A stretch of DNA of 64,000 nucleotides from an uncultured Planctomycetales bacterium (GCA_964354795.1 CAYHBB010000003.1:5887-69886); one strand, 5' to 3'. Counted from the first letter of the stretch, positions 3 to 37,037 are shown. Program-made: numbers and translations. The notes: generated by a model not told the origin, from the sequence alone.

Positions 3-2501
3 TTGATGGAACTTGGCGCTGGTTTTAATCCTGAGTTTACGGGGCGTGAAAATATTATTATTAATGCGCGGGTATATGGTTTGCATGAGGATGTTCTTGC
101 GCAAAAGATTCCGGAAATCCTTGAGTTTTCAGGGCTGGGAAGATTCATTGATGCGCCGATAAAATATTATTCGCAAGGCATGTATATGCGTTTGGCGTTT
201 GCTCTTGCTGTATTTGTCGAGCCCGATATTTTTTTGGTCGATGATATATTGTCAGTAGGGGATGAGGATGCGCAACAGAGGTGTATTAAGAAGATATTTG
301 AGTTAAAGAAATCCGGTAAGACTATAGTTGTTGTCAGTCACGACATGAACATAGTAAGCAGGCTCTGCGACCGCGTTATACTGTTGGATCACGGAAGAAT
401 TGTCCAGGAAGGCCAACCGGGGAAGGTTCTTTCATACTATTTGGAAACAGCTGGTGAAAAGAAAGGAATTGCTTCTTTTGAGCATGACGGGATAAGGGTC
501 GTGTTTAATAATGGCAGGCTAGGCGTTTCATATCGCGGCAACCTGATTACTAAAGGCGTCGGTGCTCATACCATATTCTATGATCGTTTGCTTGGCAGTT
601 ATGTAACTTCCGAAAATCTTTCTTGGCAGATAAGCTCTATTTCTGCAACTGAAATCATCGCTGAGGGGTGGATGCATGAAGGCCAGCTTTCGCAGGTATG
701 GTCAATAGGGTTGTCTTGCGGTGATTTGTCATTTCAGGTCAAGATAGAAGATCAGTGTAAGCAGGAGTTTCATATGGATTTCTTGCTTAAGCCTCAATAC
801 GTATCCTGGAATACATTCGATGTAAGCGGTATATTCCCGCCGTATGTTCATAAAACTAATTGGCAGAGTTTGAATATTGGTGTTCCGGAAGAAGGATTGG
901 TCGCGTTAAGTCCAGGCTCGCAGGAAGAAAATACGCCTTCTATTGTTTTTGAAAATACTTATAAGGACAGCGAGATACGATTATTTAATACGGGTTATGA
1001 TCAGGAATCACGGGGTTTGCAGTATTTTTTAGGGCAGGAGGGGGCAATTTCAATCCGTTTAAAAACGATCCCTAGCATAAAAGACTATCAAAACTTTGTT
1101 GAGTCTAAGAAGAAAGAGCTATTGCTAAATAAAGACCTGAAAAAATGGAGAGCGTTAGCAGTGCAAAGAATTTCCTGCGGTGATATAAGTTTTTTTGTAG
1201 ATATCGAAAATAAAATTTTGCGGATTTTCTCAAAAGATGCAGAGATAACCAGCGGGGGCGGTTTGCGGGCATTGATAACCGTAGGGGGCTCTTTGTATAG
1301 CTCTAAAGATGCGCAGTGGCAGGTTCGCAAAATTTCAGGGCAATTGTTGGAATTGACAATGGAATATGGGGCAATGCCATTTACTCAGCGGTGGATATTC
1401 AATGCTGAGCAGGAAAATACAATTACCTACTCAATAAAGATGGAGTCTGAGCAACGAATAGTTTTTAAAAAGCAGGATGTGGTCCTGGAGGTTGTTGATA
1501 GTTATATTAGTTGGCGGACACCATACGAAGAAGGAGGGTTTACTGAGGCTCAATATGTTTTGGGGATCCTTCCTGTGCGTTTGCGTGAAAGTAAAGTCAG
1601 GGAGATATCGCTAGCGTCTATGAGCAATGGAGCGTCAGATTATTTATTTCTCCAGGTAACACCGAGTCCGCATAAACAATTATTGGGGATTTATAAACAG
1701 AATTTATCGCAAAAAGAAAGCGTGTGTGTGAATTCCTCGATTATCGTTTCGAAAAATAATGAACTGCTTGAAGGCGGGATACATGAAGTTTTTGATGCGA
1801 AGATAGTCTTACATAGAGATATTAGTCCACGGAGTTCTTCAGTATTAGGCGAGGATATAACATTAGAGAATAAAAAATTGCGGATTGTTTTTGATCAAGG
1901 AAGAGGGAGAATCTTTTGGGGAGAGACAGAGGTGACTGTTGGATTAGGCCTTTTTACATCCGTGCGTTCATCCGGCATTTGGCATGATTCTTATCAGGCG
2001 GCATGGGATAAGGATTATGTTCGGGATAATAAAATAAGCGTTACTGGCTATTGGCCGTATATCCCCATTGTCCAGACATGGCAGATCCAGCTTTTAGATA
2101 GCAAAACAATTTACTGGAAAGTGGATGTGAAGGTTCTTGCTCCTTTTAATCTGGAGTTAGAGCAGTCGAATCTTATGCTTTCTGCGGAATATAAAAAATG
2201 GTCTGTTGACGGTGGTATTGGTGGTGACTTTTTAGATGAGTTTACCCGGCAATACGATATTCTGCCGTTTCGGTTTTGGTATGGCAAGTCTTTGCAAAAT
2301 GGTATAGTCGTTCGTGCTAATCTTTCTTCAGTCTTGTTCCAGGATAAATCAGGCAATGAAGATACCAGGGGAATTGTAGAGAATAGCGATTATCTATATG
2401 GGGCCCGTATGCTGCAATATCAGAATTCTCCTAAAGCGGATGCGTCCCTTGGTCAATATACGTATTTTGAAGGGGTGATACACGTTGAGTCTGAAGAATA
2501 A
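3..2501 (+). CDS. Wzt/TagH-type polysaccharide-export ABC transporter ATP-binding protein, 5'-truncated at the window edge, with a ~680-aa C-terminal extension of three ~120-aa W-rich repeats
   Basis: The first ~150 aa match the C-terminal half of TagH/Wzt nucleotide-binding domains: signature YSQGMYMRLAFALA, Walker B/D-loop FLVDDILSVGDEDAQ and H-loop VVSHDM. The ORF runs to base 3, so Walker A lies outside the window. Three repeats follow with the pattern F..G.G...G..T.G.GL......G.W.DS..A.W......PI.Q.W.I....I.WK. Confidence 0.85.
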   Translation: MMELGAGFNPEFTGRENIIINARVYGLHEDVLAQKIPEILEFSGLGRFIDAPIKYYSQGMYMRLAFALAVFVEPDIFLVDDILSVGDEDAQQRCIKKIFELKKSGKTIVVVSHDMNIVSRLCDRVILLDHGRIVQEGQPGKVLSYYLETAGEKKGIASFEHDGIRVVFNNGRLGVSYRGNLITKGVGAHTIFYDRLLGSYVTSENLSWQISSISATEIIAEGWMHEGQLSQVWSIGLSCGDLSFQVKIEDQCKQEFHMDFLLKPQYVSWNTFDVSGIFPPYVHKTNWQSLNIGVPEEGLVALSPGSQEENTPSIVFENTYKDSEIRLFNTGYDQESRGLQYFLGQEGAISIRLKTIPSIKDYQNFVESKKKELLLNKDLKKWRALAVQRISCGDISFFVDIENKILRIFSKDAEITSGGGLRALITVGGSLYSSKDAQWQVRKISGQLLELTMEYGAMPFTQRWIFNAEQENTITYSIKMESEQRIVFKKQDVVLEVVDSYISWRTPYEEGGFTEAQYVLGILPVRLRESKVREISLASMSNGASDYLFLQVTPSPHKQLLGIYKQNLSQKESVCVNSSIIVSKNNELLEGGIHEVFDAKIVLHRDISPRSSSVLGEDITLENKKLRIVFDQGRGRIFWGETEVTVGLGLFTSVRSSGIWHDSYQAAWDKDYVRDNKISVTGYWPYIPIVQTWQIQLLDSKTIYWKVDVKVLAPFNLELEQSNLMLSAEYKKWSVDGGIGGDFLDEFTRQYDILPFRFWYGKSLQNGIVVRANLSSVLFQDKSGNEDTRGIVENSDYLYGARMLQYQNSPKADASLGQYTYFEGVIHVESEE

Positions 2502-5500
2502 TATTGAGAAGCTTAGAAAACATTTGGAAATCGGTGGAATCGGTTACGCCTTTCGCCGTGCCATTAAATATTTCTTGTATTTGTTAAGGGCAATTTTTCT
2601 ACGTTTTCAGAAAAAGCCCGCGGAAATTACCCTGGGGTCAAAAGTTAAGCTTTGTTTTGAGCAGTCAGCTGTGCATCTATTTTTTAATGGAACGCAGGTC
2701 ACCTCGGGGCCCGGTCTGCATGTGGCAATAAATAGCTTGGGCGTCTGGGAGGATTTAACGCAGGCTGACCTTAAAATTGTTAAAAAGCAGCGGGATTCCG
2801 TCACTTTACGGATACGACACCATAAATTTCCTATTACTCAGTTTTGGACTATTAAACGAGAGGCAGAAGAAAAGATATCTTGGAAGATTAAAATACAAAT
2901 AAGAGAAACTATGCATATTGACGAGATATGCATAGCCTGTGGGGTCCATCCTCAATATAAGAGTTGGGTAAAAGATTATTTGCAGAATGATTTTCCAGCT
3001 TTTGGGGCTCAATGGCGAGATATTTATCTCGAAGATGTATCTGTTTTTTTGTTGGGAGTGAGAATCCCGGTCCAGGGCGCTACTTTACCCTCGTTGGCTT
3101 TAGAATTAAATGATTCCCAGTTGTTTCCTTTTATTAGGAATTCTACGCTGGGAAATAGTTTTCACGTCATTGGTACCAGGCACACCGTGCTTAAATCTAT
3201 CTCAAAATGTAGCCGGGGAATGTCAGTTTCTTTTTCGCAGGCCATAAATTTCTTCGAGAACGATGCAGACCTAGATTTAAAAATCGAATTATTTAGAAGA
3301 AAATTGGTGGCCAAGGCAATTAGTGAGAAGACTGGATTATTAGCGCCCTACCGCAAAAGAATTCTTTTGGTGAATCTCCCGTGGCAAAGACGCGGCTGTT
3401 GGGGGGTACGAGCTGGTTCGCGGTGGCCGCATATAAAGGACGTAAGTGAAGGGGACTATTTACCGTTCCCTTTTTTTCTTAGCTATGCTACTGCATTGTT
3501 AAAGAATAATGATTTTAGTGTCACTATTATTGATGCCGTTGCAGAGCAGATGCCAGAAGCCAAATTATTAGAGTTTATCTCGGGTAATAAATTCGATTAT
3601 GTTGTCGCTGAGACATCTATTCCGTCGTTTAGCAATGATCTTCGTATTCTTGGGGGTATTTCCAAATTAAGGGTTTCAATAATTTTATGCGGCCCGAATT
3701 ACCAGATTTACAAACCTGAGTTTTTACAGCAGCATCGGTTTATTGACTTTGTTCTTTACGGAGAATATGAATTCAATCTTCTTCAGTTAATGCGCTGCTT
3801 TAAAGACAAGGGTGATGTTTCAGGTGTGAGTGGCTTATTATATAGAAAAGACGGGAAAGTTTACAAGACCGAATCCGGACAGCCGTTTGATATAAACCTT
3901 CTACCTTGGCCTGAGCGAGAAAGCCTTCCGCTTTTAAAGTATTTGGATGCCCCGGGAGGAATGTTGACACCCAGCGCGCAGATTATTGCATCGCGCGGTT
4001 GCCCGTTTGGGTGTAAGTTTTGCCTGTGGCCTCAAGTGGTCTATCAGGGCCGGCACTATCGAACGCGGAATGTTATTGACGTTGTTGATGAAATGGAATA
4101 TTTGATCAGGGAGAAGGGATCCAGGTCAGTTTATTTTGACGATGATACATTTAATATCGGCAAAGAACGAATGTTTGAGTTTTGCGATCAGATTATTAAA
4201 CGAGGATTGAATCATACTCAGTGGGCGATCATGGCGCGTCCGGACCTAATGGATGAATCACTATTGGACAAATTTAAGGAAGCCGGATTATACGCCGTAA
4301 AATACGGTGTTGAATCGGGCGTCCAGGATTTATTGGATAATATCGGAAAGGCAATGGACCTGGAGTATGCACAGAGGATGATTCGCTATACGCAAAAAAT
4401 AGGCATCAAGACACATCTGACATTTACCTTTGGACTTCCTGGGGAGACCAGGGAAACTATCGAGAAGACGATTGCTTTGGCAAAAAGCCTGGACCCTTTC
4501 TCTGTGCAGTTTTCTTTAGCTACCCCTTTTCCCGGGACCGAGTATCATCGAATATTAGAAAAATGCGGCTGTATCATCTCTAAAGATTTATCCAGTTATG
4601 ACGGTCATTCTAGCAGTGTGATCAAACTGGGGAATCTGGGTTCAGGCGATCTTGAAGAAGCTAAAGTCAGGGCTTATCAGGTATGGTTTGAGTATGTAAA
4701 GAAAAGAAGGGGTTTTCTGGGTAATATAAAGAGGGTTTATGATTTTTTGAAAAGAAACAATATTTCTTATGTGTTGAAGAGGGTAGTTGGCTATCTTACG
4801 AAAGCGTTGCTTAAGAAAGGTATTTCTGAAAATAAGCATAAGGACAATAGTCCGGATATTCTCCTTATTCAGTGTCCACCATGGGATTTTAGTATGGCAC
4901 CTCTGGGGGTTGCATACTTGTCTAGTTATTTGGAGAAACTTGGTTACAAAGCTGACGTTTTTGATCTTAATATAAAATTATATAATTCGGTCGCGGAAAA
5001 ATACCGGCATTACTGGGAGCAAAAAAATATTTGCTTATGGTCTGTAGAGGATTTATTTGAGAACACGTGGTCTGTCTTACAAGATGAAGTGCTATCTCTT
5101 ATGGAAGATGTGATTAAAAATGGTTCGCCTTGTATTGGGCTTTCGGTTAATTTCGGTGGTATTCGCTTTGCCATTAAACTTCTTAATATAATAAGGCAAA
5201 AGAATAAGAGCATAAAAATAATTGTTGGTGGATGGGGGGTTATTGACGAGTACATGCGCGGACTATTCCCGAAAGAAATGCTAGATGCTTTTGTAATAGG
5301 TGAGGGAGAGCAGACTCTTGTTGAAGTGATTGACGTTTTTAGAGGAAAACGCAAGGATAGAAACGTGCTCGGCGCAATATTTACAGAAAATGAAAATTCT
5401 GAATTTAAGCTGCGTAAGCCGATTGCGGATATTAATACCATTCCCTGGCCGACATTTTCTGATTTTGATCTGAAATCTTACAAAAATGTGCTTATACCGT

Positions 5501-6237
5501 TGTTTACCAGTAGGGGATGCATAGGGCATTGTACTTTTTGCAATGACTGGGTCTATTCTAAGCCGTACCGTTACCGTAACGCCAAAAATATCTTTAAGGA
5601 GATCAGGTACCATGTGGAAAATAACCGTGTGAACGCGTTCTCTTTTAAGGATTTGCTATGTAACGGAAACCTTAGGGAGCTAGGGAATCTGTGTGACTTG
5701 CTTATTGAATCAGGCCTTGAGATAGCCTGGGATTCGCAGGCTATTACCCGTAGGGAGATGACGTATGAGTTTCTGTGTAAGCTGAAAAAAAGCGGGTGCA
5801 CGACCTTGATTTATGGAATAGAAAGTTTTTCTGATAACGTGCTTAGGCGTATGGGTAAAATATTCGATAGAGAGACAGCGGAGCTGGTGCTTAAAAGTAC
5901 CCATAAGGCGGATATAGGATCTTTGATCAACATTATCGTTGGTTTTCCGGGCGAGACTGAGCAAGATTTTCAAGAGACCCTGGACGCGTTAGAGTTAAAC
6001 CGGCCGTACCTGAGTGGCGTAGGCGCAGTGAGCGTCTGTTTGGTAAACGGCAATAGTCCATTATGCTGTAAAAAGAATGAATTCGGTATAGTAACTCCAT
6101 CCGAGATCAGCAGTTCGGCTAAACAATGGATGAGCAGTGACGGAAAAAACACCTATGAGATCCGGAAGCAAAGAGCGGAAAAGGTGATAGAGCTAATAAC
6201 GCATTTGGGGTTATCCTATGAAACTGCGACTATTTGA
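2485..6237 (+). CDS. 1250-aa protein with an N-terminal W-rich repeat domain like those in the upstream Wzt tail, followed by two tandem B12-binding radical SAM (class B) modules; probable TTG start overlapping the upstream stop by 17 nt
   Basis: Module 1 has a Rossmann-like B12-binding segment (RILLVNLPW...VTIIDAVAEQ) and then CPFGCKFC (CxxxCxxC). Module 2 has ILLIQCPPWD...KADVFDLN and then CIGHCTFC. Residues 40-160 follow the same pattern as the three repeats in ORF 3..2501. The first in-frame ATG is more than 130 codons downstream. A GGGGTG Shine-Dalgarno-like tract lies 8 nt before the TTG. Confidence 0.8.
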   Translation: MSLKNNIEKLRKHLEIGGIGYAFRRAIKYFLYLLRAIFLRFQKKPAEITLGSKVKLCFEQSAVHLFFNGTQVTSGPGLHVAINSLGVWEDLTQADLKIVKKQRDSVTLRIRHHKFPITQFWTIKREAEEKISWKIKIQIRETMHIDEICIACGVHPQYKSWVKDYLQNDFPAFGAQWRDIYLEDVSVFLLGVRIPVQGATLPSLALELNDSQLFPFIRNSTLGNSFHVIGTRHTVLKSISKCSRGMSVSFSQAINFFENDADLDLKIELFRRKLVAKAISEKTGLLAPYRKRILLVNLPWQRRGCWGVRAGSRWPHIKDVSEGDYLPFPFFLSYATALLKNNDFSVTIIDAVAEQMPEAKLLEFISGNKFDYVVAETSIPSFSNDLRILGGISKLRVSIILCGPNYQIYKPEFLQQHRFIDFVLYGEYEFNLLQLMRCFKDKGDVSGVSGLLYRKDGKVYKTESGQPFDINLLPWPERESLPLLKYLDAPGGMLTPSAQIIASRGCPFGCKFCLWPQVVYQGRHYRTRNVIDVVDEMEYLIREKGSRSVYFDDDTFNIGKERMFEFCDQIIKRGLNHTQWAIMARPDLMDESLLDKFKEAGLYAVKYGVESGVQDLLDNIGKAMDLEYAQRMIRYTQKIGIKTHLTFTFGLPGETRETIEKTIALAKSLDPFSVQFSLATPFPGTEYHRILEKCGCIISKDLSSYDGHSSSVIKLGNLGSGDLEEAKVRAYQVWFEYVKKRRGFLGNIKRVYDFLKRNNISYVLKRVVGYLTKALLKKGISENKHKDNSPDILLIQCPPWDFSMAPLGVAYLSSYLEKLGYKADVFDLNIKLYNSVAEKYRHYWEQKNICLWSVEDLFENTWSVLQDEVLSLMEDVIKNGSPCIGLSVNFGGIRFAIKLLNIIRQKNKSIKIIVGGWGVIDEYMRGLFPKEMLDAFVIGEGEQTLVEVIDVFRGKRKDRNVLGAIFTENENSEFKLRKPIADINTIPWPTFSDFDLKSYKNVLIPLFTSRGCIGHCTFCNDWVYSKPYRYRNAKNIFKEIRYHVENNRVNAFSFKDLLCNGNLRELGNLCDLLIESGLEIAWDSQAITRREMTYEFLCKLKKSGCTTLIYGIESFSDNVLRRMGKIFDRETAELVLKSTHKADIGSLINIIVGFPGETEQDFQETLDALELNRPYLSGVGAVSVCLVNGNSPLCCKKNEFGIVTPSEISSSAKQWMSSDGKNTYEIRKQRAEKVIELITHLGLSYETATI

Positions 6238-7483
6238 TTTGTTTATGGGCAGGTTTTTAGGTTCAGGCTATCAAAAACATCAAGAAGGCAATTTTGTCGC
6301 AAAAAAAGACCTTGTCTTAGAGGGGATACTTGATGGTTCTCTGGCTTTTTCTGGGCCTCAGACAGTCCAGTTCGATGTGACTAACCGTTGTAATAATAAT
6401 TGCTTGTGTTGTTGGAATAATTCTCCCTTTTTAGGCGATTTACCTGAGGATAGGCTAAAGGAAAAGGAAGACGAGCTGCCGTTAAAGCTCATAAAGAAGA
6501 TTTTCGCAGAATTGAAAGGCCTCGGTACTAAGAATTTGGTTCTTGCTGGAGGCGGAGAGCCATTTATGCATCCTAAGATTATTGATATTTTAAGCGCAGC
6601 AAAGAAATGTAATTTTCGCGTTTCTATTAATACGAATTTTACGCTTATTGATGAGAAAATTGCAAAAAAACTTGTAGATTTAAAGATCGATTTGATTCAT
6701 GTTAGTCTTCTCGCAGGTACTCCTAAAACTTATGCAGTGGTTCACCCCAATAAGACTGAGGAGACTTTTTTGCGGATAGTTCGGGTACTTAGATATATGG
6801 TTGAAGAAAGAAACAGGCGCTACCAAAACGGGCCTATACCTCAGCCGCACGTAGATCTTTATTATGTGATTTTTAATCAAAACTATCGTGACATACGGGC
6901 AATGACTGATCTTGCCATGGATTTGCGGGTCAATACGCTTGAATTTACACCTATTGACGTTATTCCCGGAAAGACAGATGTTCTGCTGCTTAATGAGCCC
7001 CAGAAAAGAGAAGTGCTCGAGTCTGTAATTGCGCAAAAGATTAGGCTCGAAGAGTTTAACCGGCAAAATGGGGGAAAAGTTACTTTTATTGAACAGTACG
7101 ATCCGTTTATAAAGCGCCTATCTGCAGAGAATGCCGTAAAAGGTCAATACGAGTCTACTACAATAGTGCAGCAGCCTTGTTATGTAGGATGGGCCTTTGC
7201 GCGCATACTTGCTAACGGTAATGTCACCCCTTGTCTTAAGGCCCATCGGGTGACAACGGGTAATATTTATAAGCAAAAGTTCAGGAATATTTGGAACAGC
7301 CCAGAGCAGCAGTTGTTTAGGAAGAAGGCTTTTATGCCCCAGAAAAACGATCAGTATTTGAGAAGTATTGGCAATAACCCCAGCGAGGACTCAGGTTGCC
7401 TTAGTAGTTGCGATAATATCCAGATTAACATTGAAATGCACGCAAAATATCATGCTGTAACTAACAAAAATGCGAAATCTTAA
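6218..7483 (+). CDS. radical SAM enzyme with a C-terminal SPASM/twitch-like Cys motif (paralog 1 of 3 in tandem)
   Basis: VTNRCNNNCLCCW (CxxxCxxC), GGGEPFMHP SAM-binding GGE motif, C-terminal PCYVGWAFARI...PC...GCLSSC cysteine cluster; overlaps the upstream gene. Confidence 0.75.
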   Translation: MKLRLFDLFMGRFLGSGYQKHQEGNFVAKKDLVLEGILDGSLAFSGPQTVQFDVTNRCNNNCLCCWNNSPFLGDLPEDRLKEKEDELPLKLIKKIFAELKGLGTKNLVLAGGGEPFMHPKIIDILSAAKKCNFRVSINTNFTLIDEKIAKKLVDLKIDLIHVSLLAGTPKTYAVVHPNKTEETFLRIVRVLRYMVEERNRRYQNGPIPQPHVDLYYVIFNQNYRDIRAMTDLAMDLRVNTLEFTPIDVIPGKTDVLLLNEPQKREVLESVIAQKIRLEEFNRQNGGKVTFIEQYDPFIKRLSAENAVKGQYESTTIVQQPCYVGWAFARILANGNVTPCLKAHRVTTGNIYKQKFRNIWNSPEQQLFRKKAFMPQKNDQYLRSIGNNPSEDSGCLSSCDNIQINIEMHAKYHAVTNKNAKS

Positions 7484-8696
7484 GAAATTCATAGCGGATA
7501 GAGATAAATTTTTTTTAGTCAGCGGAATACTTCATTCCTCAAGAGCTTTTATCGGCCCAGAAGTCCTTCATGTTGATTTAACTAACGTTTGTAATTTTAG
7601 TTGTATTGCATGCTGGTGTCGTTCCCCACTCTTGGAAGAAAAGGGAATGCCTGAATGGGAAAGGAAGCTAGCGCTGTCCACAGAAGTTGTAAAGAAAGCC
7701 TTTGACGATCTGGCAGGAATGGGGGGATTAAAGCAGGTCAAATTGGTTGGCGGCGGAGAGCCATTTATGCACCCGGACATCTTGGAAATCGTTGAATATA
7801 TCAAGGGAAAGAACAAAAATATCGCAATTGACATCAATACAAATTTTAGCCTTGTTGACCGATCTATTATTGGGAGGCTGTTGGAGCTTGGCGTTGATTC
7901 ATTAACCGTAAGCCTCTGGGCAGGAACTTTTAAAGCATATGTCGCAGTCCATCCAATGCAGAAGGAAGATATATTTTATAAAATAAAAGATAATCTTAAG
8001 TTCATATCTACAGAAAAGAACAGGCTAAACATTAAGAGACCCCGGATTGTCCTGCACGATGTCATTATGAACCTGAACTATGGGGACATGTGGGAGATGC
8101 TGCAATTTGGTCTTGATGTAGGAGCGGATGACATTCAGTTTGTCCCTATTGATCCTGTGAAGGGAAAAACAGAATCGCTGTTGCTTAATGATAGTCAAAG
8201 GGCTGAGTTATTGCAAGTAGCCCATAAAATATTGACGCGATACAATAGGAATAACTTTGAATATTTATCCGAGGATGGCCGTAGCATTACTCTTTCAGAT
8301 TTTGAGGGGTTTATCAGGCGTATCGAAAAGCTTGATACAAAAAGCGGCGTTTATGACGAGCTCCGTGTTGCGATGATACCTTGTTATGTTGGTTGGCTTT
8401 TTGCCCGGATAATGGCAACCGGAAATGTTGTGCCCTGTTGCAAGGGGCACCGTATGACTATGGGCAATGTCAATGAAGACAGCTTTAAGAGGATTTGGAA
8501 TGGTAAGCGATACCGTGAATTTAGGAATAAAGCCAAGAATATGGATAAATCAAATCCATATTTCTCCCTTTTTGGGAATGACGCCTCGACAGATACGGGT
8601 TGCTATAATTGTGATAATTTGTGGCAGAATGAGCCTATGCATAGGTTGATCAAGTCTTTACCCTTGCATAAACGTAAATTCTTGTTTTTTAAATGA
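7470..8696 (+). CDS. radical SAM enzyme with SPASM/twitch-like C-terminus (paralog 2 of 3)
   Basis: LTNVCNFSCIACWC, GGGEPFMHP, PCYVGWLFARI...PCC...GCYNCDN; clearly paralogous to the flanking genes. Confidence 0.75.
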   Translation: MRNLKKFIADRDKFFLVSGILHSSRAFIGPEVLHVDLTNVCNFSCIACWCRSPLLEEKGMPEWERKLALSTEVVKKAFDDLAGMGGLKQVKLVGGGEPFMHPDILEIVEYIKGKNKNIAIDINTNFSLVDRSIIGRLLELGVDSLTVSLWAGTFKAYVAVHPMQKEDIFYKIKDNLKFISTEKNRLNIKRPRIVLHDVIMNLNYGDMWEMLQFGLDVGADDIQFVPIDPVKGKTESLLLNDSQRAELLQVAHKILTRYNRNNFEYLSEDGRSITLSDFEGFIRRIEKLDTKSGVYDELRVAMIPCYVGWLFARIMATGNVVPCCKGHRMTMGNVNEDSFKRIWNGKRYREFRNKAKNMDKSNPYFSLFGNDASTDTGCYNCDNLWQNEPMHRLIKSLPLHKRKFLFFK

Positions 8697-10090
8697 AAGA
8701 CTATTCAAAAGAAAAATCAGTGATTTCTTTTCTTAACCACTATTGCCGAGATCACGGCGCAAAACGCACTTTACAAGGCTTCAGGCGCAATCTTAATCTA
8801 TGCAATCTTTTTGATGAATACCGTATTTTGAAAGGCATTGATAGCAGAATATATGCTTTTTGCTCGCCTTTATCTGTTCAGATCGATCTTACAAATGACT
8901 GCAATAATGATTGCCTCTGCTGCTGGTGTAATTCTCCTTTACGAAAAAATGAAGAAGTACGCCCTGACAAGTTATCGCTTGATTATGAAGTTATTTTGGG
9001 TGTTTTCGATGAATTGCAGCGTGCGGGGACGCGGGAGATCATTCTTTCCGGAGGAGGAGAACCATTTCTATACCCTCGATTATTCGAGGTAATTGCTGAG
9101 ATCAAGAAAAGAGGATTAATTACTCAGTTATATACAAATTTTACGCTAATCAACAAAGAATCAATCAAGAGTTTAGTTGAATTGGCTGTTGATCGCCTGA
9201 CAGTAAGCCTGTGGGCAGCAGATCCCAAGATGTATTGTATTTTGCACCCCAACAGGCAAGAGGCTGACTTTCTTAGGATTAAGGATAACCTAATTAACCT
9301 AAGAATAATGAAGCAGGGGCTTAAGAAGAATAAGCCAATTGTTTGCCTGCACAATGTTATTAACTCAAAGAATTTTCGTCAAATAAATGAGATGACTGAT
9401 TTTGCTATTTTGGTTGGCGCAGATGAAGTAAGGTTTTCAGTTGTAGATGTCATACCAGGCGTTACGGATGAGCTTTTACTTAGCGATGAACAGAGGCAGT
9501 TTGTAATCAAAGAATGTAAGGGGCTAAATAATAATAGCCGCATAACCGATCTGGGTAGGTTTATGCAGATGGTTTCTTCTGATGGCGCATCCAAAGGAGA
9601 ATATGATAGAGGTGTAGTTAATAATTACCCCTGCTATACAGGGTGGCTATTTGCTCGGATCAGGGCAGACGGAAGCGTTAACCCTTGTCTAAAGTCGCAT
9701 CGTATCAGTCTCGGGAATATCTACCAGAATAGTTTTAAAGAGATCTGGAATTCGCCTTTCGCGCAAGAATTTAGATCACAGGCCCAGAAGTTGAAGTCCG
9801 GAAACCCATATTTTTCTATGGTAGGTAACGGCAGCGGCACTGATATAGGCTGTTTCAGGGTATGTGATGATCTATCAAGGAATATTTTTATGTATAGAAA
9901 GCTTAAGTTCTATCCTACTACAAAAGTTCTCCGTGTGTTTATCGGCCTTAAGAGTGCAGTTGTCGGTAACTTTAAGATAATAAAACGCTGGTTTAATTTA
10001 TTTTATTTGTTTGGAGTGGTTATTTTATATAGCGTTATACTTAAACTGCGCAGGCTGGTAAGCAATATTACTATTTTCCCGGGAGAGTAA
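8693..10090 (+). CDS. radical SAM enzyme with SPASM/twitch-like C-terminus (paralog 3 of 3) and an extra hydrophobic C-terminal tail
   Basis: LTNDCNNDCLCCWC, GGGEPFLYP, PCYTGWLFARI...PC...GCFRVCDD; C-terminal VVILYSVILKL looks like a TM segment. Confidence 0.75.
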   Translation: MKDYSKEKSVISFLNHYCRDHGAKRTLQGFRRNLNLCNLFDEYRILKGIDSRIYAFCSPLSVQIDLTNDCNNDCLCCWCNSPLRKNEEVRPDKLSLDYEVILGVFDELQRAGTREIILSGGGEPFLYPRLFEVIAEIKKRGLITQLYTNFTLINKESIKSLVELAVDRLTVSLWAADPKMYCILHPNRQEADFLRIKDNLINLRIMKQGLKKNKPIVCLHNVINSKNFRQINEMTDFAILVGADEVRFSVVDVIPGVTDELLLSDEQRQFVIKECKGLNNNSRITDLGRFMQMVSSDGASKGEYDRGVVNNYPCYTGWLFARIRADGSVNPCLKSHRISLGNIYQNSFKEIWNSPFAQEFRSQAQKLKSGNPYFSMVGNGSGTDIGCFRVCDDLSRNIFMYRKLKFYPTTKVLRVFIGLKSAVVGNFKIIKRWFNLFYLFGVVILYSVILKLRRLVSNITIFPGE

Positions 10091-10093
10091 GCA

Positions 10094-11266
10094 GTGAATA
10101 TCCTGATGGTGCATCCACACGAGGTTTATTCTTCTTTAGAGCCTTGGACAACGCGGGTTATAAATCTGGCGCGCGTTTTGGCAGCCGGTGGGCATGCTGT
10201 AAAAGTAATATATTTTCCGTTTTTATGGAATGCCAAGTTGAAAAGTTTTACAAGGGATGGTGTAGAGTTCCTTCCTTTTTCTAGAAGAACTGGGATATAT
10301 AATATTGCATTTAATTGCAATAAGTTTTCATCGATTGTCAAATGGGCGGATATTGTGCATTTCCAGAAATGTTTTCATTACGCGTCTTTGCCTGCGATAC
10401 TCAACGGTATGCTTAAGAATAAGCCATTGCATTACGACTGGGACGACTGGGAAGAGATGATCTATTATGAATCCGCAAGGCCGGCAATCAGGGGAGTAGG
10501 CTCATTCTTGAGGACGCTTGAAAAAAATATTCCTACTTTGGTAGACACTATTTCGGTTTCAAGTGAATGCCTGCGCGGATTATGCTTGGAGATGGGCCTT
10601 GACGAAGAGAGGGTCTTTACTGTCCCTGTGGGAGCGGATCTCGATAAGTTCAGTCCTTCAGTTTCAGGAGATAGAATAAGGAAGATGTATAACATTAATC
10701 GTCCCTTAGCCATGTATATTGGCCAGCTGCACGGTGGCCAATATGCCAGCCTTTTTATCCACGCGGCTAAAATCCTTATTGAAAAAGGCGTTGAGGCTGA
10801 TTTTATGATTGTTGGTGACGGTTCGAGGGGGTATGAATTGCGTAAACTTACGAGAATGCTTAAGCTTGACCGTAAGATCATCTTTACCGGGGCAGTTGAT
10901 ACAGATCTTATGCCGGAATATATCGCTAGCTCAGATGTGGCGGTGGCTTGTTTTGAGGATAACTTAGTCACACGTTGTAAAAGCCCGCTAAAGATCGCTG
11001 AATATCTGGCTTGTGGTAAGGCTATAGTTGCAAGCCGGGTAGGGGAAGTAGAGAAGATGGTTGGTGATGCGGGGATACTAGTTGATCCGGGGCAGAGCAA
11101 GCCGCTTGCTGAGGGAATATTGAGTTTATTAATCGATGATAGATTAAGAATAAAGCTTGGGGAAAAAGCGAGAACGAGGGCAGAAGAAGTATATAACTGG
11201 AAGAATTCTGCTAATACGCTTCTTAAGGCGTATGAGTTTGGTAGGAAACAAAAATCCAATGCCTAA
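10094..11266 (+). CDS. GT4-family (GT-B fold) glycosyltransferase; GTG start
   Basis: C-terminal EYLACGKAIVASRVGEVEKMV matches the GT4 E-x7-E donor-binding motif, with a retaining-GT-like N-domain. Confidence 0.75.
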   Translation: MNILMVHPHEVYSSLEPWTTRVINLARVLAAGGHAVKVIYFPFLWNAKLKSFTRDGVEFLPFSRRTGIYNIAFNCNKFSSIVKWADIVHFQKCFHYASLPAILNGMLKNKPLHYDWDDWEEMIYYESARPAIRGVGSFLRTLEKNIPTLVDTISVSSECLRGLCLEMGLDEERVFTVPVGADLDKFSPSVSGDRIRKMYNINRPLAMYIGQLHGGQYASLFIHAAKILIEKGVEADFMIVGDGSRGYELRKLTRMLKLDRKIIFTGAVDTDLMPEYIASSDVAVACFEDNLVTRCKSPLKIAEYLACGKAIVASRVGEVEKMVGDAGILVDPGQSKPLAEGILSLLIDDRLRIKLGEKARTRAEEVYNWKNSANTLLKAYEFGRKQKSNA

Positions 11267-17526: not shown

Positions 17527-18306
17527 ATGAAAATTATCGTTTTAATGGCAGGAGAGGGTAGGCGTTTCGCAGGTTTTCAGAATATACCTAAACCTCTTGT
17601 AAAGCTTGGAAACGCCGAATTAATAAAATGGGCGGTCAATTCTTATAATTTTTTAGGATTAAGCGTTGACTGGTCGGATGTTTTTTTTATTACAAGAGAG
17701 GAATATATAAAAGATTTCTATATTGATCAAAAGTTAAAAGAGATGTTTTCACCCAAAGTTAATATTCGTTATGTCAAACAGACGACCCGTGGTCCTGCTG
17801 AGACTGCCATGTTGCTTGAAAAAGAAATACCTGCTGATGAGCAGGTAATAATCAGTGATTGCGATATGTTTTTTAATAGCCTGCCGTTATATATGGAAAT
17901 GATGAAAGTTAGAAATAATCCTTTAATCTGGGGGATATTGCCTTATGTGAAAAGAGATGATGACCAGAACAGCTGGAGTTATGCTCAGCTTGATAAGGAT
18001 AAAAAGTTAATTAAGGTTAATGAGAAGGATGAAAATATGTTTAAGGCAGGCTGTCCCGGCATTGTTGGCGCCTATGTTTTTAATCGGTGGAAATATTTCA
18101 CGAATGAAGCGAAGAAGATGATTGATGAAGATGATTTGAGCGGGGAAGAGCATAAAAAAGAATTCTATATGTCAAAAGTTTTTCAGCGTTTTATAAAGCA
18201 GGGGCGGACAGTAATCGGGGTAGATGTATATCCTGCATGGATCTTAGGTACGCCAGCGCAATTTGTCAGGTTCGAAAGCTTACTTAGGGGTGTAAAGGGA
18301 GAATGA
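17527..18306 (+). CDS. sugar- or alcohol-phosphate nucleotidyltransferase (GT-A-like NTP_transferase family)
   Basis: N-terminal IIVLMAGEGRRF...PKPLV glycine-rich loop, typical of RmlA/IspD/LicC-type nucleotidylyltransferases. Confidence 0.55.
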   Translation: MKIIVLMAGEGRRFAGFQNIPKPLVKLGNAELIKWAVNSYNFLGLSVDWSDVFFITREEYIKDFYIDQKLKEMFSPKVNIRYVKQTTRGPAETAMLLEKEIPADEQVIISDCDMFFNSLPLYMEMMKVRNNPLIWGILPYVKRDDDQNSWSYAQLDKDKKLIKVNEKDENMFKAGCPGIVGAYVFNRWKYFTNEAKKMIDEDDLSGEEHKKEFYMSKVFQRFIKQGRTVIGVDVYPAWILGTPAQFVRFESLLRGVKGE

Positions 18307-19559
18307 TGGATATAGATAAGTTTATATTTACGCAGGACTTTAATCCAGAGGATTATATAGTTGCAAGTTACTTTTTAGAGTCTACTGCAAATCTTAGCCT
18401 TTATGATATTTCAAGGCAGCTTGCTTTGGGGCAATCTATAGGGAATCCCGAGATAAGGTCTGTTTATGAAATAGAGGATCTTTTCCGGGATGTCTCAGTT
18501 AAGATTATGGCAGAATCTGGGGAGTTAAAAAGAGGGAATAAGGGTGAGGTTAAGTTCGCATTTCCTATTGCTAATCTTAATTTAAAAGAGGATGGGATTA
18601 ATCAATTATTATGTCATCTTATGGGAGGGCATCTTGATATTAATGCTATAAGCAAATGTTGGCTTTTTGATATAAAATTTCCCAAGAAATTCCTTGCTGT
18701 CTTTAAAGGGCCAAGGTTCGGGGTTACCGGAATACGCGAATTTATGAAAGTATATAATAAGCCTATTTTAGGGAGCATTATCAAGCCAAAAATCGGCTTA
18801 AATAAATATAAACTTTTGGATATTGTAAAGGAGCTAATTGATGGAGGGATAAATTTTATAAAGGAAGATGAGATTATGTCTAATCCTTCAATTTGTCCTT
18901 TAGAGGAAAGAGCTTCATATGTAATGAAGTATATTAATAATTCTTCCAGAAAGATTGTGTATGCTTTCTGCATAAATAGCGATTATCCTTACTTTATTGA
19001 TAGGGCAAAGAGAGTATATCAGATGGGAGGAAATTGTGTGCACTTAAATATCTGGTCAGGCCTTTCTGCATATAAATCTTTGAGAGATCTAGATTTGCCA
19101 ATAATGATATTCTTCCAGAAGAGCGGAAACATGATTTTCACCAACCCAAAGCACGATTTTCACATCAGTTGGAATGTTATATGTTATTTAGCTCGGCTTA
19201 TGGGAGTAGACTTTATGCATGTAGGGATGTGGGGAGGGTATTCTCATGATGAAGAATTTAGATTGCATGAGGCCATTAAAATACTTACTGATGTAAGTGA
19301 TGGTTTTAGGGGAACTTTGCCCTCGTTGTCTTGTGGTATGCATCCGGGGTTAGTCAATGCTATTTTAAACAGGTTTGGAATTAATGTGATGCTCAACGTG
19401 GGAGGCGCTATTCACGGTCATCCAAGCGGATCTAAGGCGGGTGCAGTCGCAATGAGACAGGCTATTGAATTATCGGTACAGAATAAATTTACTAAGGAAA
19501 ACATATATCAAGCTAAGGAATTAAGAGAAGCTATACAGAAATGGGGTTATATAGAATGA
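18303..19559 (+). CDS. RuBisCO large-subunit superfamily protein, most likely a RuBisCO-like protein (form IV) and not a carboxylase
   Basis: IIKPKIGLN matches the catalytic KPKLGLS motif; GGINFIKEDEIMSN matches GGLDFTKDDENVNS (carbamylated Lys and acidic residues); DFMHVG matches DHLHSG; NVGGAIHGHPSG matches GGGTLGHPWG. The loop-6 Lys334 equivalent appears replaced (GMWGGYSHDE versus GTVVGKLEGE). Confidence 0.7.
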   Translation: MMDIDKFIFTQDFNPEDYIVASYFLESTANLSLYDISRQLALGQSIGNPEIRSVYEIEDLFRDVSVKIMAESGELKRGNKGEVKFAFPIANLNLKEDGINQLLCHLMGGHLDINAISKCWLFDIKFPKKFLAVFKGPRFGVTGIREFMKVYNKPILGSIIKPKIGLNKYKLLDIVKELIDGGINFIKEDEIMSNPSICPLEERASYVMKYINNSSRKIVYAFCINSDYPYFIDRAKRVYQMGGNCVHLNIWSGLSAYKSLRDLDLPIMIFFQKSGNMIFTNPKHDFHISWNVICYLARLMGVDFMHVGMWGGYSHDEEFRLHEAIKILTDVSDGFRGTLPSLSCGMHPGLVNAILNRFGINVMLNVGGAIHGHPSGSKAGAVAMRQAIELSVQNKFTKENIYQAKELREAIQKWGYIE

Positions 19560-22686: not shown

Positions 22687-24000
22687 CTAATGACCATTAA
22701 GTAATAATGAGTTTTGGTTGATAAACTTTTGTATATTTAAAATAACCCCATCCATATTAATATAATCCCAATTACCGCTTCTGCCTAACAAATACAAATT
22801 ATGTTCTTTTAATATATTACGTATATTATCCCTGACTTCTTCCATGCCAACGGTTGGAATCGGATAGGTGTATTCTTTTAATTTTATTTCAGTTTTCTCA
22901 ATCTCATTCTCAGATTTGATTATCCCCTTTCTAATAAGATCTCTTATAACTCGGGATACTATCTCTTCAACACTAGTATTAATAATATAGTCTTTTTGGG
23001 TTATCTCTGCTACGAGTACAGGCAAGAATTCGTGGCTAAAATTATGCATAAGAGTAACACGATAGAAAACCTCATCTTCTTTAAAGAATACCCAATGACA
23101 ATTATTAATTAATTGAAATGTTGCCCCTTTTTTAAGCCCTATCATTACAAAGAAAGTATTATTCCACTTTAATACATTATATTCTTTTTTCACGCCATTT
23201 ATGTTTATTTTTGTGAGAAGTTCCGGCAATGGAATTGTCGAGATTACAATGTCAGCCTCTTCTTTTAAGTCGTCTTTCGTAATAATAGTCCATTTATTGT
23301 TATGTTTGATCAACTTTTTTACACAGGAATCCAATATTATATTATTACCTATATCTTTTGCGGTATAATCTATTAATTTCTGTATGCCTTGTTTCGGGTA
23401 TATAAATTTTGATTGATATTCTCTTCCAGCAACTTTCTTACCAAGGATAGAAGCTATGAAATTAATGATTGATACCGGTTCAACCCTTGAATTAACCAAT
23501 GATTCTGATATTTCAGACAGATCACAATTCCAGATCTTGGAATTATAAGGAATCATAAAATTTCTAGCGATGCCTTCTCCAAGTCGATTATCTATCCAGT
23601 TTTTCAGATTAGAACTTTTTTCTTTGCGTCTTTTCTGAGCAGTTAAATATCCTTTGATGCACTCCAATTTATCACTTAGAGGTAGATTCTTGATTCCGAT
23701 TTCAAACGGGTATTCGATTATATATCTTCTTCCATCACTACCGCTGTGGAATATTTTAGCATTTCTGTTTAAATGTTCGTAATCAAGCGGTAGAGAAAGA
23801 AAATAATTTGTTACCTCGCTGTTTTTGCTACATATAGCGTGAACTGCAAAATCCCAATAGTAGTCACCTGTTTTATTGGTTTGACATAGGCCGCCTATTT
23901 TGCACTCCTTCTCAAAAATAATAAACTTATTTCCTAATTCTTTGAGATGTCTTCCTAGCTCTATACCCGTAAGACCTGCGCCTAATATTGCTATTTTCAT
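22687..24000 (-). CDS. FAD-dependent oxidoreductase, UDP-galactopyranose mutase / amine-oxidase-like
   Basis: MKIAILGAGLTGIELG...IIFEKECKIGGLC dinucleotide-binding fold followed by a GG...H..... segment resembling UGM. Confidence 0.5.
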   Translation of the reverse strand: MKIAILGAGLTGIELGRHLKELGNKFIIFEKECKIGGLCQTNKTGDYYWDFAVHAICSKNSEVTNYFLSLPLDYEHLNRNAKIFHSGSDGRRYIIEYPFEIGIKNLPLSDKLECIKGYLTAQKRRKEKSSNLKNWIDNRLGEGIARNFMIPYNSKIWNCDLSEISESLVNSRVEPVSIINFIASILGKKVAGREYQSKFIYPKQGIQKLIDYTAKDIGNNIILDSCVKKLIKHNNKWTIITKDDLKEEADIVISTIPLPELLTKININGVKKEYNVLKWNNTFFVMIGLKKGATFQLINNCHWVFFKEDEVFYRVTLMHNFSHEFLPVLVAEITQKDYIINTSVEEIVSRVIRDLIRKGIIKSENEIEKTEIKLKEYTYPIPTVGMEEVRDNIRNILKEHNLYLLGRSGNWDYINMDGVILNIQKFINQNSLLLNGH

Positions 24001-29610: not shown

Positions 29611-30996
29611 ATGAAAATACTTTTTGTCCAATTTGAACCTCGCGAAAGCTTAGCAGTCGAGTACCTTTCTGCCTACTTGCAAGGATTTGGACATTCCACC
29701 AGCGTACTTATTGTTGGTATTACGTCTCCTTCTAGGATTATATCGCAGATTCAATCGAATCAGCCTGGCATGATTTGTGTTACTGATTCGGGTTCTGATG
29801 CTGAAAGAATCAAGGTCCTTTCAGCTTTGCTAAAAAAGAATAGTAGTGCGAAAATTGTAATAGGTGGCTATATAACTATAAATAAAGAAGAAGTCTTTGA
29901 GAAAGATAGTAATGTAGATGCCTATTGCATAGGAAGCGGATTTTATCTTTATGGGTTGATACAGTATTATGAGGGCAATTATCCAGCTGAAAATATTCCT
30001 AATTTTATTATAAGACGCAATGGCACGTTAATAAGGAATAAGCTCGATAGCGATTCACATTTTTGCGATTTTAAGGATAGGGATATGTTTATTTATCGCG
30101 AGTACCCATTCCTGTATTACAGTATATTTCCTTTCGTTATGGCATCTTATGGTTGTATTAATAATTGTAGTTTTTGTTTCTATTCTGGTTTTAAAAGTAG
30201 ATTTGGCAAAAGGGCAGGACTTTGCTATAAAAAGCCGGATCTCGTTTTAAAGGAAATACTTCAGATGCAGAAAATTAATAGGTATTTCAAGTGCTTTAAT
30301 TTTGTCGACGACAATATGTCAAATGATATTGGTTGGCTCACTGACCTAATGAGTATTATTAAGCCATTAGGACTGAGGTTTTTTGCTAAAATAGATATTA
30401 ATAGTTGTACCGAAGAAATGATAAGGATGATGCGGGAGGCTGGCTTATTTGGAGCAACTATCGGAATAGAGCATATAAATCAGAATATAAGAGAGTCATT
30501 GTTAAATAAGAATTTCACTAATGATAAGCTTATTCAAGTGATTTCGTGGCTTAGGAAATATGGTGTGCATATCCGGGCGTATTTTATAATCGGCCTACCC
30601 TATCAAACTGCAGAAGATGTCTCAGAAAATGTTTCATTTGCAAGGAGGCATGGCTTAAAAGAGGCAGCATTTACTTTTCTAGCCTTACTTCCTAATACCG
30701 TGCTCAGAGAAAAAATAATGAATGAATATAGGGATGAGGATTTAAAGAAAGTGTTTCCTCTCTCAAAAGCACTGTTATCGCGCTTACAGCTTCAGCAGGA
30801 GCCGATGTTTTTGTCTGGCGCCCCGTTATATATTTCACAACTCATATGCAAAGCTTACTTTATTTGTCTGAAATTAAGGTATTATCCTCTTGGTGCCATC
30901 AATTTATTTTTATACGGCTGTCGTTTATCCAGCTACTTTATAAAAGAATATGTATTAAATATCTTCGATTCCGTCAGTTTAAAAAAATGTCGATAG
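29611..30996 (+). CDS. B12-binding radical SAM protein (class B)
   Basis: N-terminal B12-binding-like domain (MKILFVQFEP...), CINNCSFC CxxxCxxC, followed by a TIM-barrel-length domain. Confidence 0.8.
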   Translation: MKILFVQFEPRESLAVEYLSAYLQGFGHSTSVLIVGITSPSRIISQIQSNQPGMICVTDSGSDAERIKVLSALLKKNSSAKIVIGGYITINKEEVFEKDSNVDAYCIGSGFYLYGLIQYYEGNYPAENIPNFIIRRNGTLIRNKLDSDSHFCDFKDRDMFIYREYPFLYYSIFPFVMASYGCINNCSFCFYSGFKSRFGKRAGLCYKKPDLVLKEILQMQKINRYFKCFNFVDDNMSNDIGWLTDLMSIIKPLGLRFFAKIDINSCTEEMIRMMREAGLFGATIGIEHINQNIRESLLNKNFTNDKLIQVISWLRKYGVHIRAYFIIGLPYQTAEDVSENVSFARRHGLKEAAFTFLALLPNTVLREKIMNEYRDEDLKKVFPLSKALLSRLQLQQEPMFLSGAPLYISQLICKAYFICLKLRYYPLGAINLFLYGCRLSSYFIKEYVLNIFDSVSLKKCR

Positions 30997-31808: not shown

Positions 31809-33185
31809 TTGGATAAAAAAAGAATCCTGTTATTGGTTCCGCCAGCTGGTAAGCAGTATATCCGGGATTATTACTGCAGCTTCTCTTCTAAGGCGGGCTA
31901 CTATTGGCCACCGCAAGATTTAGTCGTTTTAAGCGGCAGTTTAAGCAAAATGTTTGAGCTAGAGGTGATTGATGCTATCGCCTTAAAGTTGAGTTTGCAA
32001 GATTGCCTTAAAGCGGTTTCGCGCAGTAATGTTGATATGATTATTGCTGCGACCGGGACTGCAACCTTGAACGATGATCTTAATTTCCTGGAGCTTGTAA
32101 AGAACAATGATCCGCTAATAAAAATAGTCCTCTCTAGCTCGATATTTCTCTCTCTCGGAAACAGGTTTTTGCTTGAGTATTATTTTATTGACGGAGTTAT
32201 GCTGGACTTTACAAATGATGATGTTGCGAACTATATATTAGGTAAATATGACGCTATCGTGAGCATGTATTTTAGAAAAGGCGGCGAAATCATTAACAGG
32301 TGCTCTGAGCCTGACAAGTCATTTAGCATAGCGATACCTCGACATGATTTATTTATAGATAAAGGATATAGGCTCCAGTTATTTAAAAAAGAAAACTTTG
32401 TAATAACTATTACTTCAATCGGCTGTCCTTACAAATGTTCTTTTTGCTGCGCTGGGGCCGTGAGATACAGGACCAGGACAATCGATAACGTTATGGAAGA
32501 ATTAAAATTCGTTAAGAATGCCTTGGGAATTAGAAACATTTTCTTTGCTAATCCTATCTTTTTTGTAAGTAAAGAATACGCTGTAGAACTTCTTAATTCA
32601 ATAATTAAAAATAAGTTAGCCGGAATTGAATGGATTGCAAATGTGCGCGTAGATATCTTAGATGAGGAATTGATAAGCTTAATGAAACAGGCTGGATGCA
32701 AGGCGTTATTGTTTGGCATTGAGAGCGGTGATCAAGATATACTGGATAAATACGGGAAAGGCATTTCTTTATCTGAAAGCAAGATTATTTTTAAGCTATG
32801 TAAGAGGCATAATATCTCTACTTTGGCCTATTTTATGCTAGGTTTTCCTGAAGACAACCAAACATCTATTGATAAGACTTTAAGGTATGTGAAAGAGGCG
32901 GCTTGTGATTATATTTCAGTCGGCTTTGCCGTACCGGACATAGGCACTAGATTAAGGGGCAGGGTTATTGAAGAAAATTATTGTTCGGTAGACTTTCTGA
33001 ACAGTTGGGACAGTTCCGCAGCTCCGTACATCAAAAATATCTCATTTTCACAAGAAGAGTTAGTAAGGATAAGAAAGAGAATATACCGCAGCTTTTATTT
33101 GCGTCCTGGGTGGATTATGCGGCATTTACTTGAACTAAACCTCAAGGATTTAATCAGCGGTGGAGCGAGGATATTAAGCAATTAA
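31809..33185 (+). CDS. B12-binding radical SAM protein (class B)
   Basis: RILLLVPPAG B12-binding domain; CPYKCSFC CxxxCxxC. Confidence 0.8.
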   Translation: MDKKRILLLVPPAGKQYIRDYYCSFSSKAGYYWPPQDLVVLSGSLSKMFELEVIDAIALKLSLQDCLKAVSRSNVDMIIAATGTATLNDDLNFLELVKNNDPLIKIVLSSSIFLSLGNRFLLEYYFIDGVMLDFTNDDVANYILGKYDAIVSMYFRKGGEIINRCSEPDKSFSIAIPRHDLFIDKGYRLQLFKKENFVITITSIGCPYKCSFCCAGAVRYRTRTIDNVMEELKFVKNALGIRNIFFANPIFFVSKEYAVELLNSIIKNKLAGIEWIANVRVDILDEELISLMKQAGCKALLFGIESGDQDILDKYGKGISLSESKIIFKLCKRHNISTLAYFMLGFPEDNQTSIDKTLRYVKEAACDYISVGFAVPDIGTRLRGRVIEENYCSVDFLNSWDSSAAPYIKNISFSQEELVRIRKRIYRSFYLRPGWIMRHLLELNLKDLISGGARILSN

Positions 33186-36371: not shown

Positions 36372-37037
36372 ATGGATATAATACTCGCTAATATTAATAA
36401 AAGTTACATCATAACTCGTTTCCCCTTCCTGAGGAAACGTGTAATCTTTGCTCTTAAGAATTTTTCGATGCACTTTAAAGGAGGTAATATTTATGCTTTG
36501 GTTGGAAGGAATGGCGCTGGCAAAACTACTTTACTTAAAATTGTATCGGGAATTATATTACAGGATAGCGGAAGCATACAAATTAATGGTAGTGGTTCTT
36601 TAATAGGGCAAGTTGTTTATGTCTCTTCTAATGAAAAGATATTTTATGAAAATTTAACTGCTAAGCAGAACATATATTTTTTTAGTGAAATTTCGGGGCT
36701 AACCCACAAAGTTATAAAATCTAGGCTCAGCGTATATTCAAAAATGTTTTGTTTAGATGGGGACCTTTTGAGAAAATGTTGGCAGCTGTCATCAGGTACG
36801 AAGAGAAAGCTAGCTATAATTCTAGGGCTTATGAGAGAATCCAAAGTTATTTTGATAGATGAAATATTCGATAAGATAGATAGGGTTAGTCGTCATGTAC
36901 TCATGAAGCATTTAAGAGAAACTGCGCAAAAAGAGGGAAAGATCATTGTTTATACGTCCCATTTAACAGAGTATATGCCTGAGTTTTATGATGAGATTGT
37001 CGAAATTGATGAAGGAGCATTGGTAAATGTTAGCTAA
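36372..37037 (+). CDS. ABC transporter ATP-binding protein (ABC-2 exporter type)
   Basis: Walker A GRNGAGKTT, signature LSSGTKRKLAI, Walker B VILIDEIFD. Confidence 0.8.
   Translation: MDIILANINKSYIITRFPFLRKRVIFALKNFSMHFKGGNIYALVGRNGAGKTTLLKIVSGIILQDSGSIQINGSGSLIGQVVYVSSNEKIFYENLTAKQNIYFFSEISGLTHKVIKSRLSVYSKMFCLDGDLLRKCWQLSSGTKRKLAIILGLMRESKVILIDEIFDKIDRVSRHVLMKHLRETAQKEGKIIVYTSHLTEYMPEFYDEIVEIDEGALVNVS

Follow-up and report, generated by a model that had tools for sequence, protein, structure and literature searches.

Why should the ATPase of a glycan exporter and the radical S-adenosylmethionine (rSAM) enzyme encoded next to it carry the same protein module? The question is raised by the left end of a 64,000-nucleotide stretch of DNA from an uncultured Planctomycetales bacterium (GCA_964354795.1 CAYHBB010000003.1:5887-69886), here called the window, with positions counted from its first letter. 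An open reading frame (ORF) for a Wzt-like ATPase, cut at its N-terminal side by the window edge, occupies 3-2501 (+) and leaves 832 amino acids (aa) visible. It is followed by a 1250-aa ORF at 2485..6237 (+), which encodes an enzyme with two B12-binding and two Radical_SAM domains (Pfam) and whose 5' end shares 17 nt with the Wzt gene, an overlap that recurs in related loci. Both ORFs are as a preliminary description, made from the sequence alone, had them. That description also claimed that a tryptophan-rich repeat of about 120 aa occurs three times in Wzt and once at the N terminus of the B12-binding rSAM enzyme (B12-rSAM), and proposed that exporter and enzyme are coupled through it.

The relationship among the four units was evaluated using BLASTP. 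The rSAM N terminus gave three collinear matches to Wzt at the positions that had been named, with 54 bits (E 1e-12, 30% identity) for Wzt residues 618-736, 42 bits for residues 402-513 and 32 bits for residues 164-317, whereas 200 shuffled versions of the rSAM segment scored 17.3 bits on average and 24.6 bits at most. The Wzt units matched one another more weakly (E 2e-4 to 5e-6). In addition, a profile of the four-unit alignment (A1) was searched exhaustively against 1.84 billion cluster representatives and retrieved 558 of them at E<=1e-3, including 181 at E<=1e-30. Because the shuffles stay low and the family is large, the similarity of the four units is one of homology and not of composition; a chance or compositional resemblance, the weak point that the preliminary description had named for itself, is ruled out by the same two results.

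The size of the unit differs from that first proposed. Envelopes of the hidden Markov model (HMM) on Wzt and rSAM indicated a length of ~220-245 aa, and the envelopes together with structural models show a single domain of ~230 aa, which rules out a 120-aa repeat; the pattern seen earlier is the better-conserved N-terminal half. The envelopes place Wzt unit 1 ('first' class) at 417..1148 (aa 139-382), unit 2 ('internal' class) at 1092..1823 (aa 364-607) and unit 3 ('last' class, the most conserved) at 1797..2498 (aa 599-832), and the rSAM-borne unit ('R' class) at 2590..3339 (aa 36-285 of the enzyme), all on the + strand. In the AlphaFold2 (AF2) model, units 1 and 2 are all-beta (strands of unit 1 at 156-356, with pLDDT mostly 80-94; pLDDT about 90 in unit 2), and a predicted 30-residue alpha-helix (H359-388; 1077..1166, +) joins them. 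The description of the units as tryptophan-rich applies in part: tryptophan makes up 2.5% of the Wzt units, 2.0% of the rSAM unit and 1.7% of the rSAM catalytic part, and 2.5% is only about twice the typical protein average, so the enrichment is modest, but a few near-invariant tryptophan positions are the standout feature of the units. All four classes agree in ten alignment columns (T, G, W, Q, W, Y, W, F, P and I).

The two proteins that carry the units were assigned from their remaining domains. What the window retains of the nucleotide-binding domain (NBD) of Wzt, its C-terminal two thirds, lies at 3..452 (+), where TagH and Wzt/RfbE are the best NCBIfam models and span aa 3-150; homologues place this stretch at aa 81-230. 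Wzt residues 1-159 align with residues 88-249 of Aquifex aeolicus Wzt (8dku, E 5e-42), so that about 88 N-terminal residues, Walker A included, lie upstream of the window. The ATPase, with an NBD nearest to those of A. aeolicus Wzt and TagH, thus belongs to the Wzt/TagH-type subfamily of glycan exporters of the ATP-binding cassette (ABC) type. The 1250-aa protein begins with about 300 aa that have no family assignment and then shows, twice, the class B architecture, in which a B12-binding domain precedes a CxxxCxxC-bearing radical SAM core (CPFGCKFC at aa 506, CIGHCTFC at aa 1012). Its first B12-binding/radical-SAM module occupies 3412..4689 (+; aa 310-735; Pfam; HpnJ-like in NCBIfam with 309 bits, cut-off 577.6) and its second 4882..6090 (+; aa ~800-1202; Pfam B12-binding 804-948 and Radical_SAM; NCBIfam TIGR03975 869-1202).

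The fold of the unit was examined in predicted models. These indicate a previously undescribed all-beta supersandwich of ~230 aa, a large two-sheet sandwich that is superposable on GalM-like domains, and a fold search with the model of a single unit gave overwhelmingly sugar-handling domains as the nearest folds. When the whole Wzt model was searched against the PDB by Foldseek, WzmWzt and TagH came top, but NBD matches swamped the list and the units were not informed by it. No match to PF14524 (Wzt_C) was found in Pfam, either with the whole protein at E<=0.1 or with isolated units at E<=10. Isolated units matched no Pfam or NCBIfam family, Aldose_epim and other enzyme families included, and a profile search of PDB sequences with the units was empty; by these searches the family is absent from all three collections. 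The unit also lacks the small beta-sandwich fold of the solved Wzt carbohydrate-binding domains (CBDs); the canonical Wzt CBD is roughly 150 aa. Since there is no PF14524 match and the similarity to A. aeolicus Wzt does not extend beyond the NBD, the module is unrelated to the canonical Wzt carbohydrate-binding module (CBM). The earlier expectation of a beta-sandwich, CBM-like fold is therefore borne out as regards an all-beta architecture near sugar-handling folds, but not as regards kinship with the canonical module. Moreover, hydrophobicity reaches its maximum (KD19) of 1.64 in Wzt at aa 64, within the NBD, and 1.33 in the rSAM enzyme. As the unit region has no strong hydrophobic segment, the Wzt and rSAM units are placed in the cytoplasm.

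To what extent do other genomes pair the domain between Wzt and rSAM genes? One genome per GTDB species was scanned with terminal-unit patterns built from 8 sequences, and the loci were annotated by six-frame ORF analysis and a 243-unit HMM. The scan yielded 49 loci, nearly all in metagenome-assembled genomes of Candidatus Omnitrophota and a few in genomes labelled Planctomycetia; three are outgroup loci, from candidate division B38, Aminicenantes and one uncultured bacterium. Among the 47 loci with enough downstream sequence, window included, 40 have a unit-leading ORF whose start is no more than a few codons away from the end of Wzt, so the pairing that had been put forward for checking is found well beyond the window. 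The unit of this ORF is usually fused to a B12-rSAM; the forms seen are unit-B12-rSAM (~790 aa), unit-B12-rSAM-SPASM-rSAM (~1150-1330 aa), a form with the B12-rSAM part twice (window, L003 and L004) and a unit-SPASM-rSAM form (L024). In three loci (L015, L016 and L031) a free-standing unit protein of ~300 aa comes before individual genes for B12-rSAM, SPASM-rSAM and GT4, ordered as in the window, and in two (L035 and L038) a unit-only ORF of 243 and 306 aa, respectively, precedes a B12-rSAM of ~970 aa. Free-standing proteins made up of one R-class unit plus a C-terminal helix (289-306 aa) take the position of the fused unit-rSAM directly 3' of Wzt (L015 10671-11537; L016 1364-2275; L031 3808-4707; L038 10620-11537). 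The pairing is not seen in L026 and L029 (GT-C gene next), in L044, where rSAMs that carry units lie 2 kb further along, in L045 and at the three outgroup loci (L047-L049). In these last, a 472-aa Wzt with one unit is followed by a 621-aa ORF without assignment and a 644-aa B12-rSAM without a detectable unit, an arrangement that may be the ancestral, unpaired state. In 36 of 37 related loci the gene immediately before Wzt encodes Wzm (ABC2_membrane in L002), and the gene order in related loci is flavoprotein, Wzm, Wzt, unit-B12-rSAM, SPASM-rSAMs and GT4; as the window begins inside Wzt, the upstream gene falls outside it.

Comparison of the units between loci showed that they group by position and not by genome. 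Mean scores between loci were 124 bits for first against first, 95 for internal against internal, 203 for last against last and 159 for R against R, and 31-55 bits between different classes. This result indicates that the array and the rSAM copy are old and individually constrained rather than recent duplicates; the same clustering rules out gene conversion, or a recent duplication, among the Wzt and rSAM units of one genome. The R class is nearest to the last class (55 bits vs. 42 for internal and 32 for first), and the best partner of R within a locus is the last unit in 18 of 29 cases. The residues of the G.W.DS..A.W motif are common to the R and last classes alone, and the last class has motifs of its own, YDILPFR and ENtD..y.aRllQyQ. 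In Wzt unit 3 of the window the corresponding motifs are G.W.DS..A.W, YDILPFRFWYGK and ENSD..Y.AR.LQYQ.

Domain architectures were read for the best 150 of the 558 cluster representatives. About 90 of these are a Wzt NBD followed by 2, 3, 4 or 5 units. The triplication in the window, which had been thought unusual, is accordingly ordinary within the family: 2, 3, 4 and 5 copies are all common, and 6 and 8 occur (a 2244-aa Wzt, P0065, has eight). Six-unit Wzt genes were seen at L009 3-4376 and L024 5702-10702; the contig of the former is labelled 'uncultured Mariniplasma' yet resembles an Omnitrophota-type locus, perhaps because of a binning error. Units also occur at the N terminus of rSAM/SPASM enzymes (2-4 copies in P0124, P0127, P0128, P0047, P0126 and P0133), in a chain of the order B12-rSAM, unit, SPASM-rSAM, unit (P0091), and at the C terminus of GT-C PMT_2 glycosyltransferases (2-4 copies in P0027, P0072, P0112, P0114, P0117, P0119, P0138 and P0140), a third class of glycan-handling enzyme that bears them. 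Furthermore, one protein of 1856 aa (P0041) unites an ABC NBD, five units and an rSAM/SPASM enzyme in a single chain, and its gene lies 3' of a Glycos_transf_4 initiating transferase, an amine-oxidase-like flavoprotein and Wzm.

What, then, would the module do on both proteins? With a probability of roughly one half, we consider the window to hold the 3' part of an Omnitrophota-type operon for an ABC-transporter-dependent glycan, and the unit to be a cytoplasmic recognition module for the lipid-linked glycan that the cluster makes. The presence of the module on both the exporter and the tailoring enzymes suggests that both steps address the same polymer, and the fusions and fissions argue strongly for functional coupling and make physical coupling probable. 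Coupling of glycan tailoring to export through the shared module is well supported. The fold and the context make a glycan the most likely ligand, which the units would bind; the direction of hand-over is likewise a proposal. On the exporter, the three copies would stand in for the canonical Wzt CBD; on the enzyme, the unit would hold the nascent polymer for radical tailoring. With 6 units per Wzt dimer in the window and 4 to 16 in relatives, the tandem array would then capture the polymer and feed it to Wzm, so that one substrate would tie tailoring to export. The rSAM unit and the terminal Wzt unit, both with G.W.DS..A.W, may recognise the same or a closely related feature.

Several observations weigh against this glycan-recognition reading. 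The fold searches were run with a single-unit model whose mean pLDDT is only 59.5, and the Foldseek E-values are weak (best 2.7e-3, none <=1e-3). The matches include the P1 domain of YidC, which has no known sugar binding, so the fold is not exclusive to sugar-handling proteins, and no sequence link of the unit to any characterised CBM was found. The case for glycan binding by the units is one of fold and context. By Kyte-Doolittle and positive-inside counting, the GT-C-unit fusions have 8-12 membrane segments and show no clear bias in charge, and their units may be periplasmic or cytoplasmic. In addition, the conservation of the terminal unit throughout the phylum (203 bits) is unlike that of serotype-variable CBMs and would fit a conserved protein partner.

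Such a partner is at the centre of a rather unlikely alternative, in which the units are protein-protein modules and the rSAM-borne or free-standing unit would pack on the Wzt array and so build up an rSAM tailoring complex at the cytoplasmic face of the exporter, the glycan being read elsewhere. The frequency with which NBD, units, B12-rSAM and SPASM-rSAM are fused or split would indeed point to one physical complex; units of ~300 aa exist as free-standing proteins, the terminal and R classes are as highly conserved across the phylum as a protein interface would be, and YidC P1 has the same supersandwich fold. A docking role is harder to reconcile with nearest folds that are overwhelmingly sugar-handling, and 2-8 tandem copies are more readily explained by avidity for a polymer than by a single docking site. 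Moreover, units are also found C-terminally on GT-C glycosyltransferases, and the soluble C-terminal domains of ArnT/PMT-type enzymes are periplasmic, beyond the reach of a cytoplasmic Wzt.

Less likely still is a model along the lines of the preliminary description, in which the B12-rSAM is a methyltransferase whose chain-terminating cap would be bound by the Wzt units, above all by the terminal one, so that export is licensed as in the O8/O9a systems. The domain architecture of the enzyme fits class B rSAM enzymes, which are mostly methylases, and the Wzt and rSAM genes are tightly coupled and overlapping. The best NCBIfam matches of the B12-rSAM, however, are HpnJ, BchE and PhpK, all far below cut-off and of differing chemistries that include non-methylases. 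Enzyme and exporter bear different classes of unit with only ~30% identity, an operon with five or more rSAM domains goes far beyond the need of a cap, and arrays of several units are unnecessary for reading a single terminus. Wzt proteins with extra C-terminal domains are known as readers of terminal modifications, but no copy of the binding module is described on the O9a terminator enzyme (PMC3482155). It is very improbable that the units are themselves enzymes of a mutarotase-, epimerase- or lyase-like kind acting on the glycan: for all the likeness of fold, no catalytic pair of the His/Glu type is found among the residues conserved in all four classes, and sequence searches matched neither Aldose_epim nor any other enzyme family. 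Beyond the window, we tentatively envisage, with more doubt than confidence, an Omnitrophota-wide 'tailor-and-export' machine, in which a supersandwich module, diversified into positional classes and spread over Wzt, up to five or more rSAMs and GT-Cs, would physically organise radical chemistry on a surface glycan at the mouth of the transporter, by multivalent glycan capture or by docking of unit on unit. If true, such a machine would couple the modification of a polymer to its export by a new logic and would add a new family of cytoplasmic CBMs.

The remainder of the window is a very large glycan island. Directly after the 1250-aa enzyme, and conserved within the same operon, come three tandem rSAM/SPASM paralogues, without a unit here, at 6218-7483, 7470-8696 and 8693-10090 (+; Pfam), whose order is kept in L003, L004, L015, L016 and L031. 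The trio forms a single fused chain of 1300-1500 aa in many Omnitrophota genomes (L010, L011, L020, L032, L037, L041 and others), and relatives in still other genomes bear 2-4 units. The sequence of the first of the three proteins is found, identical, on L001 (Logan ERR4334728, 3664 nt). The conserved next gene encodes a GT4 glycosyltransferase (10094..11266, +; Pfam) with homologues 3' of the rSAM genes in many loci. Further downstream are GT-C (PMT_2) enzymes, more glycosyltransferases and more B12-rSAMs, among them three stand-alone B12-binding radical SAM genes at 29611-30996, 31809-33185 and 42212-43891 (+); the island totals five B12-rSAM domains and three SPASM-rSAMs in 45 kb.

Some other genes of the island were recorded as well. 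A RuBisCO large-subunit-like protein is encoded inside the glycan cluster at 18303-19559 (+; PF00016 catalytic domain, E 7e-40), with a MobA-like nucleotidyltransferase on one side and two ORFs without family assignment on the other; it presumably serves sugar-phosphate chemistry and not CO2 fixation. A second ABC-2 exporter pair at 36372-37848 (+), a 221-aa ATPase without C-terminal extension and an ABC2_membrane permease, may serve another polymer. The amine-oxidase/NAD_binding_8 flavoprotein that stands just upstream of Wzm in many related loci (L002-L046) has its homologue in the window at 22687-24000 (-), 20 kb downstream and on the opposite strand. At the right end (56000-64000) GC content is 0.44-0.47, up from about 0.33-0.39, a rise which suggests that the glycan island, with its low GC, stops near 56 kb.

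Literature searches on Wzt together with radical SAM, and on Omnitrophota together with radical SAM, brought up no account of such a system. Wzt-type exporters with accessory recognition domains are known; the domain family, its tandem arrays and its sharing with rSAM and GT-C enzymes are new. To our knowledge, the choice of finished polymers by Wzm/Wzt is understood for a few Proteobacterial and Aquifex systems, all with one small cap-reading CBD. The system described here offers a testable handle on the coupling of tailoring and export in ABC-dependent glycan pathways, and on the role of the many radical-SAM genes in Omnitrophota surface-glycan islands. The family (558 representatives at E<=1e-3) could also be curated for annotation. 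The pattern is robust throughout the phylum and would surprise specialists in ABC-dependent glycan export; its function is what we infer.

How does the module compare with known systems? Like the canonical Wzt CBD of E. coli O8/O9a, Klebsiella/Raoultella O12 and A. aeolicus, it lies C-terminal to the NBD of a Wzm/Wzt exporter, in the cytoplasm; unlike the PF14524 domain, from which it differs in sequence, it occurs in 2-8 tandem copies and also on tailoring enzymes. The predicted fold resembles the GalM-like supersandwich of aldose 1-epimerases and of N-terminal or accessory domains in GH97, GH63, GH15, GH94, GH149, GH38, heparinase II/III and rhamnogalacturonan lyase. This likeness is one of fold, with only 5-14% identity and no relationship at the HMM level; the unit, moreover, is found on an ABC ATPase, rSAMs and GT-Cs and not on hydrolases or lyases, and is cytoplasmic and arranged in tandem arrays. 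The enzyme shares with HpnJ, BchE and PhpK the B12-binding domain and CxxxCxxC core, which here occur twice, whereas the combination of an N-terminal supersandwich unit with tandem B12-rSAM matches no NCBIfam model above cut-off. In the canonical system, the Wzt C-terminal domain binds the finished polymer and licenses export, and in O9a the terminator WbdD is a kinase/methyltransferase while the binding module is part of Wzt (PMC3482155). As in the window, the O9a exporter locus encodes a tailoring enzyme coupled to export (PMC3482155); here, however, that enzyme is an rSAM, and a shared domain and gene fusions are the signs of the coupling, whereas in O9a the module is placed on Wzt and none is described on WbdD. 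The coupling of exporter and enzyme that the preliminary description proposed is thus upheld by the synteny in 40 of 47 loci and by the P0041 fusion, but the analogy it drew to O8/O9a is loose because no shared module is described there (PMC3482155). It does not extend to the domain family or to module sharing, and it holds for an exporter with an appended reader domain that is coupled to a tailoring enzyme.

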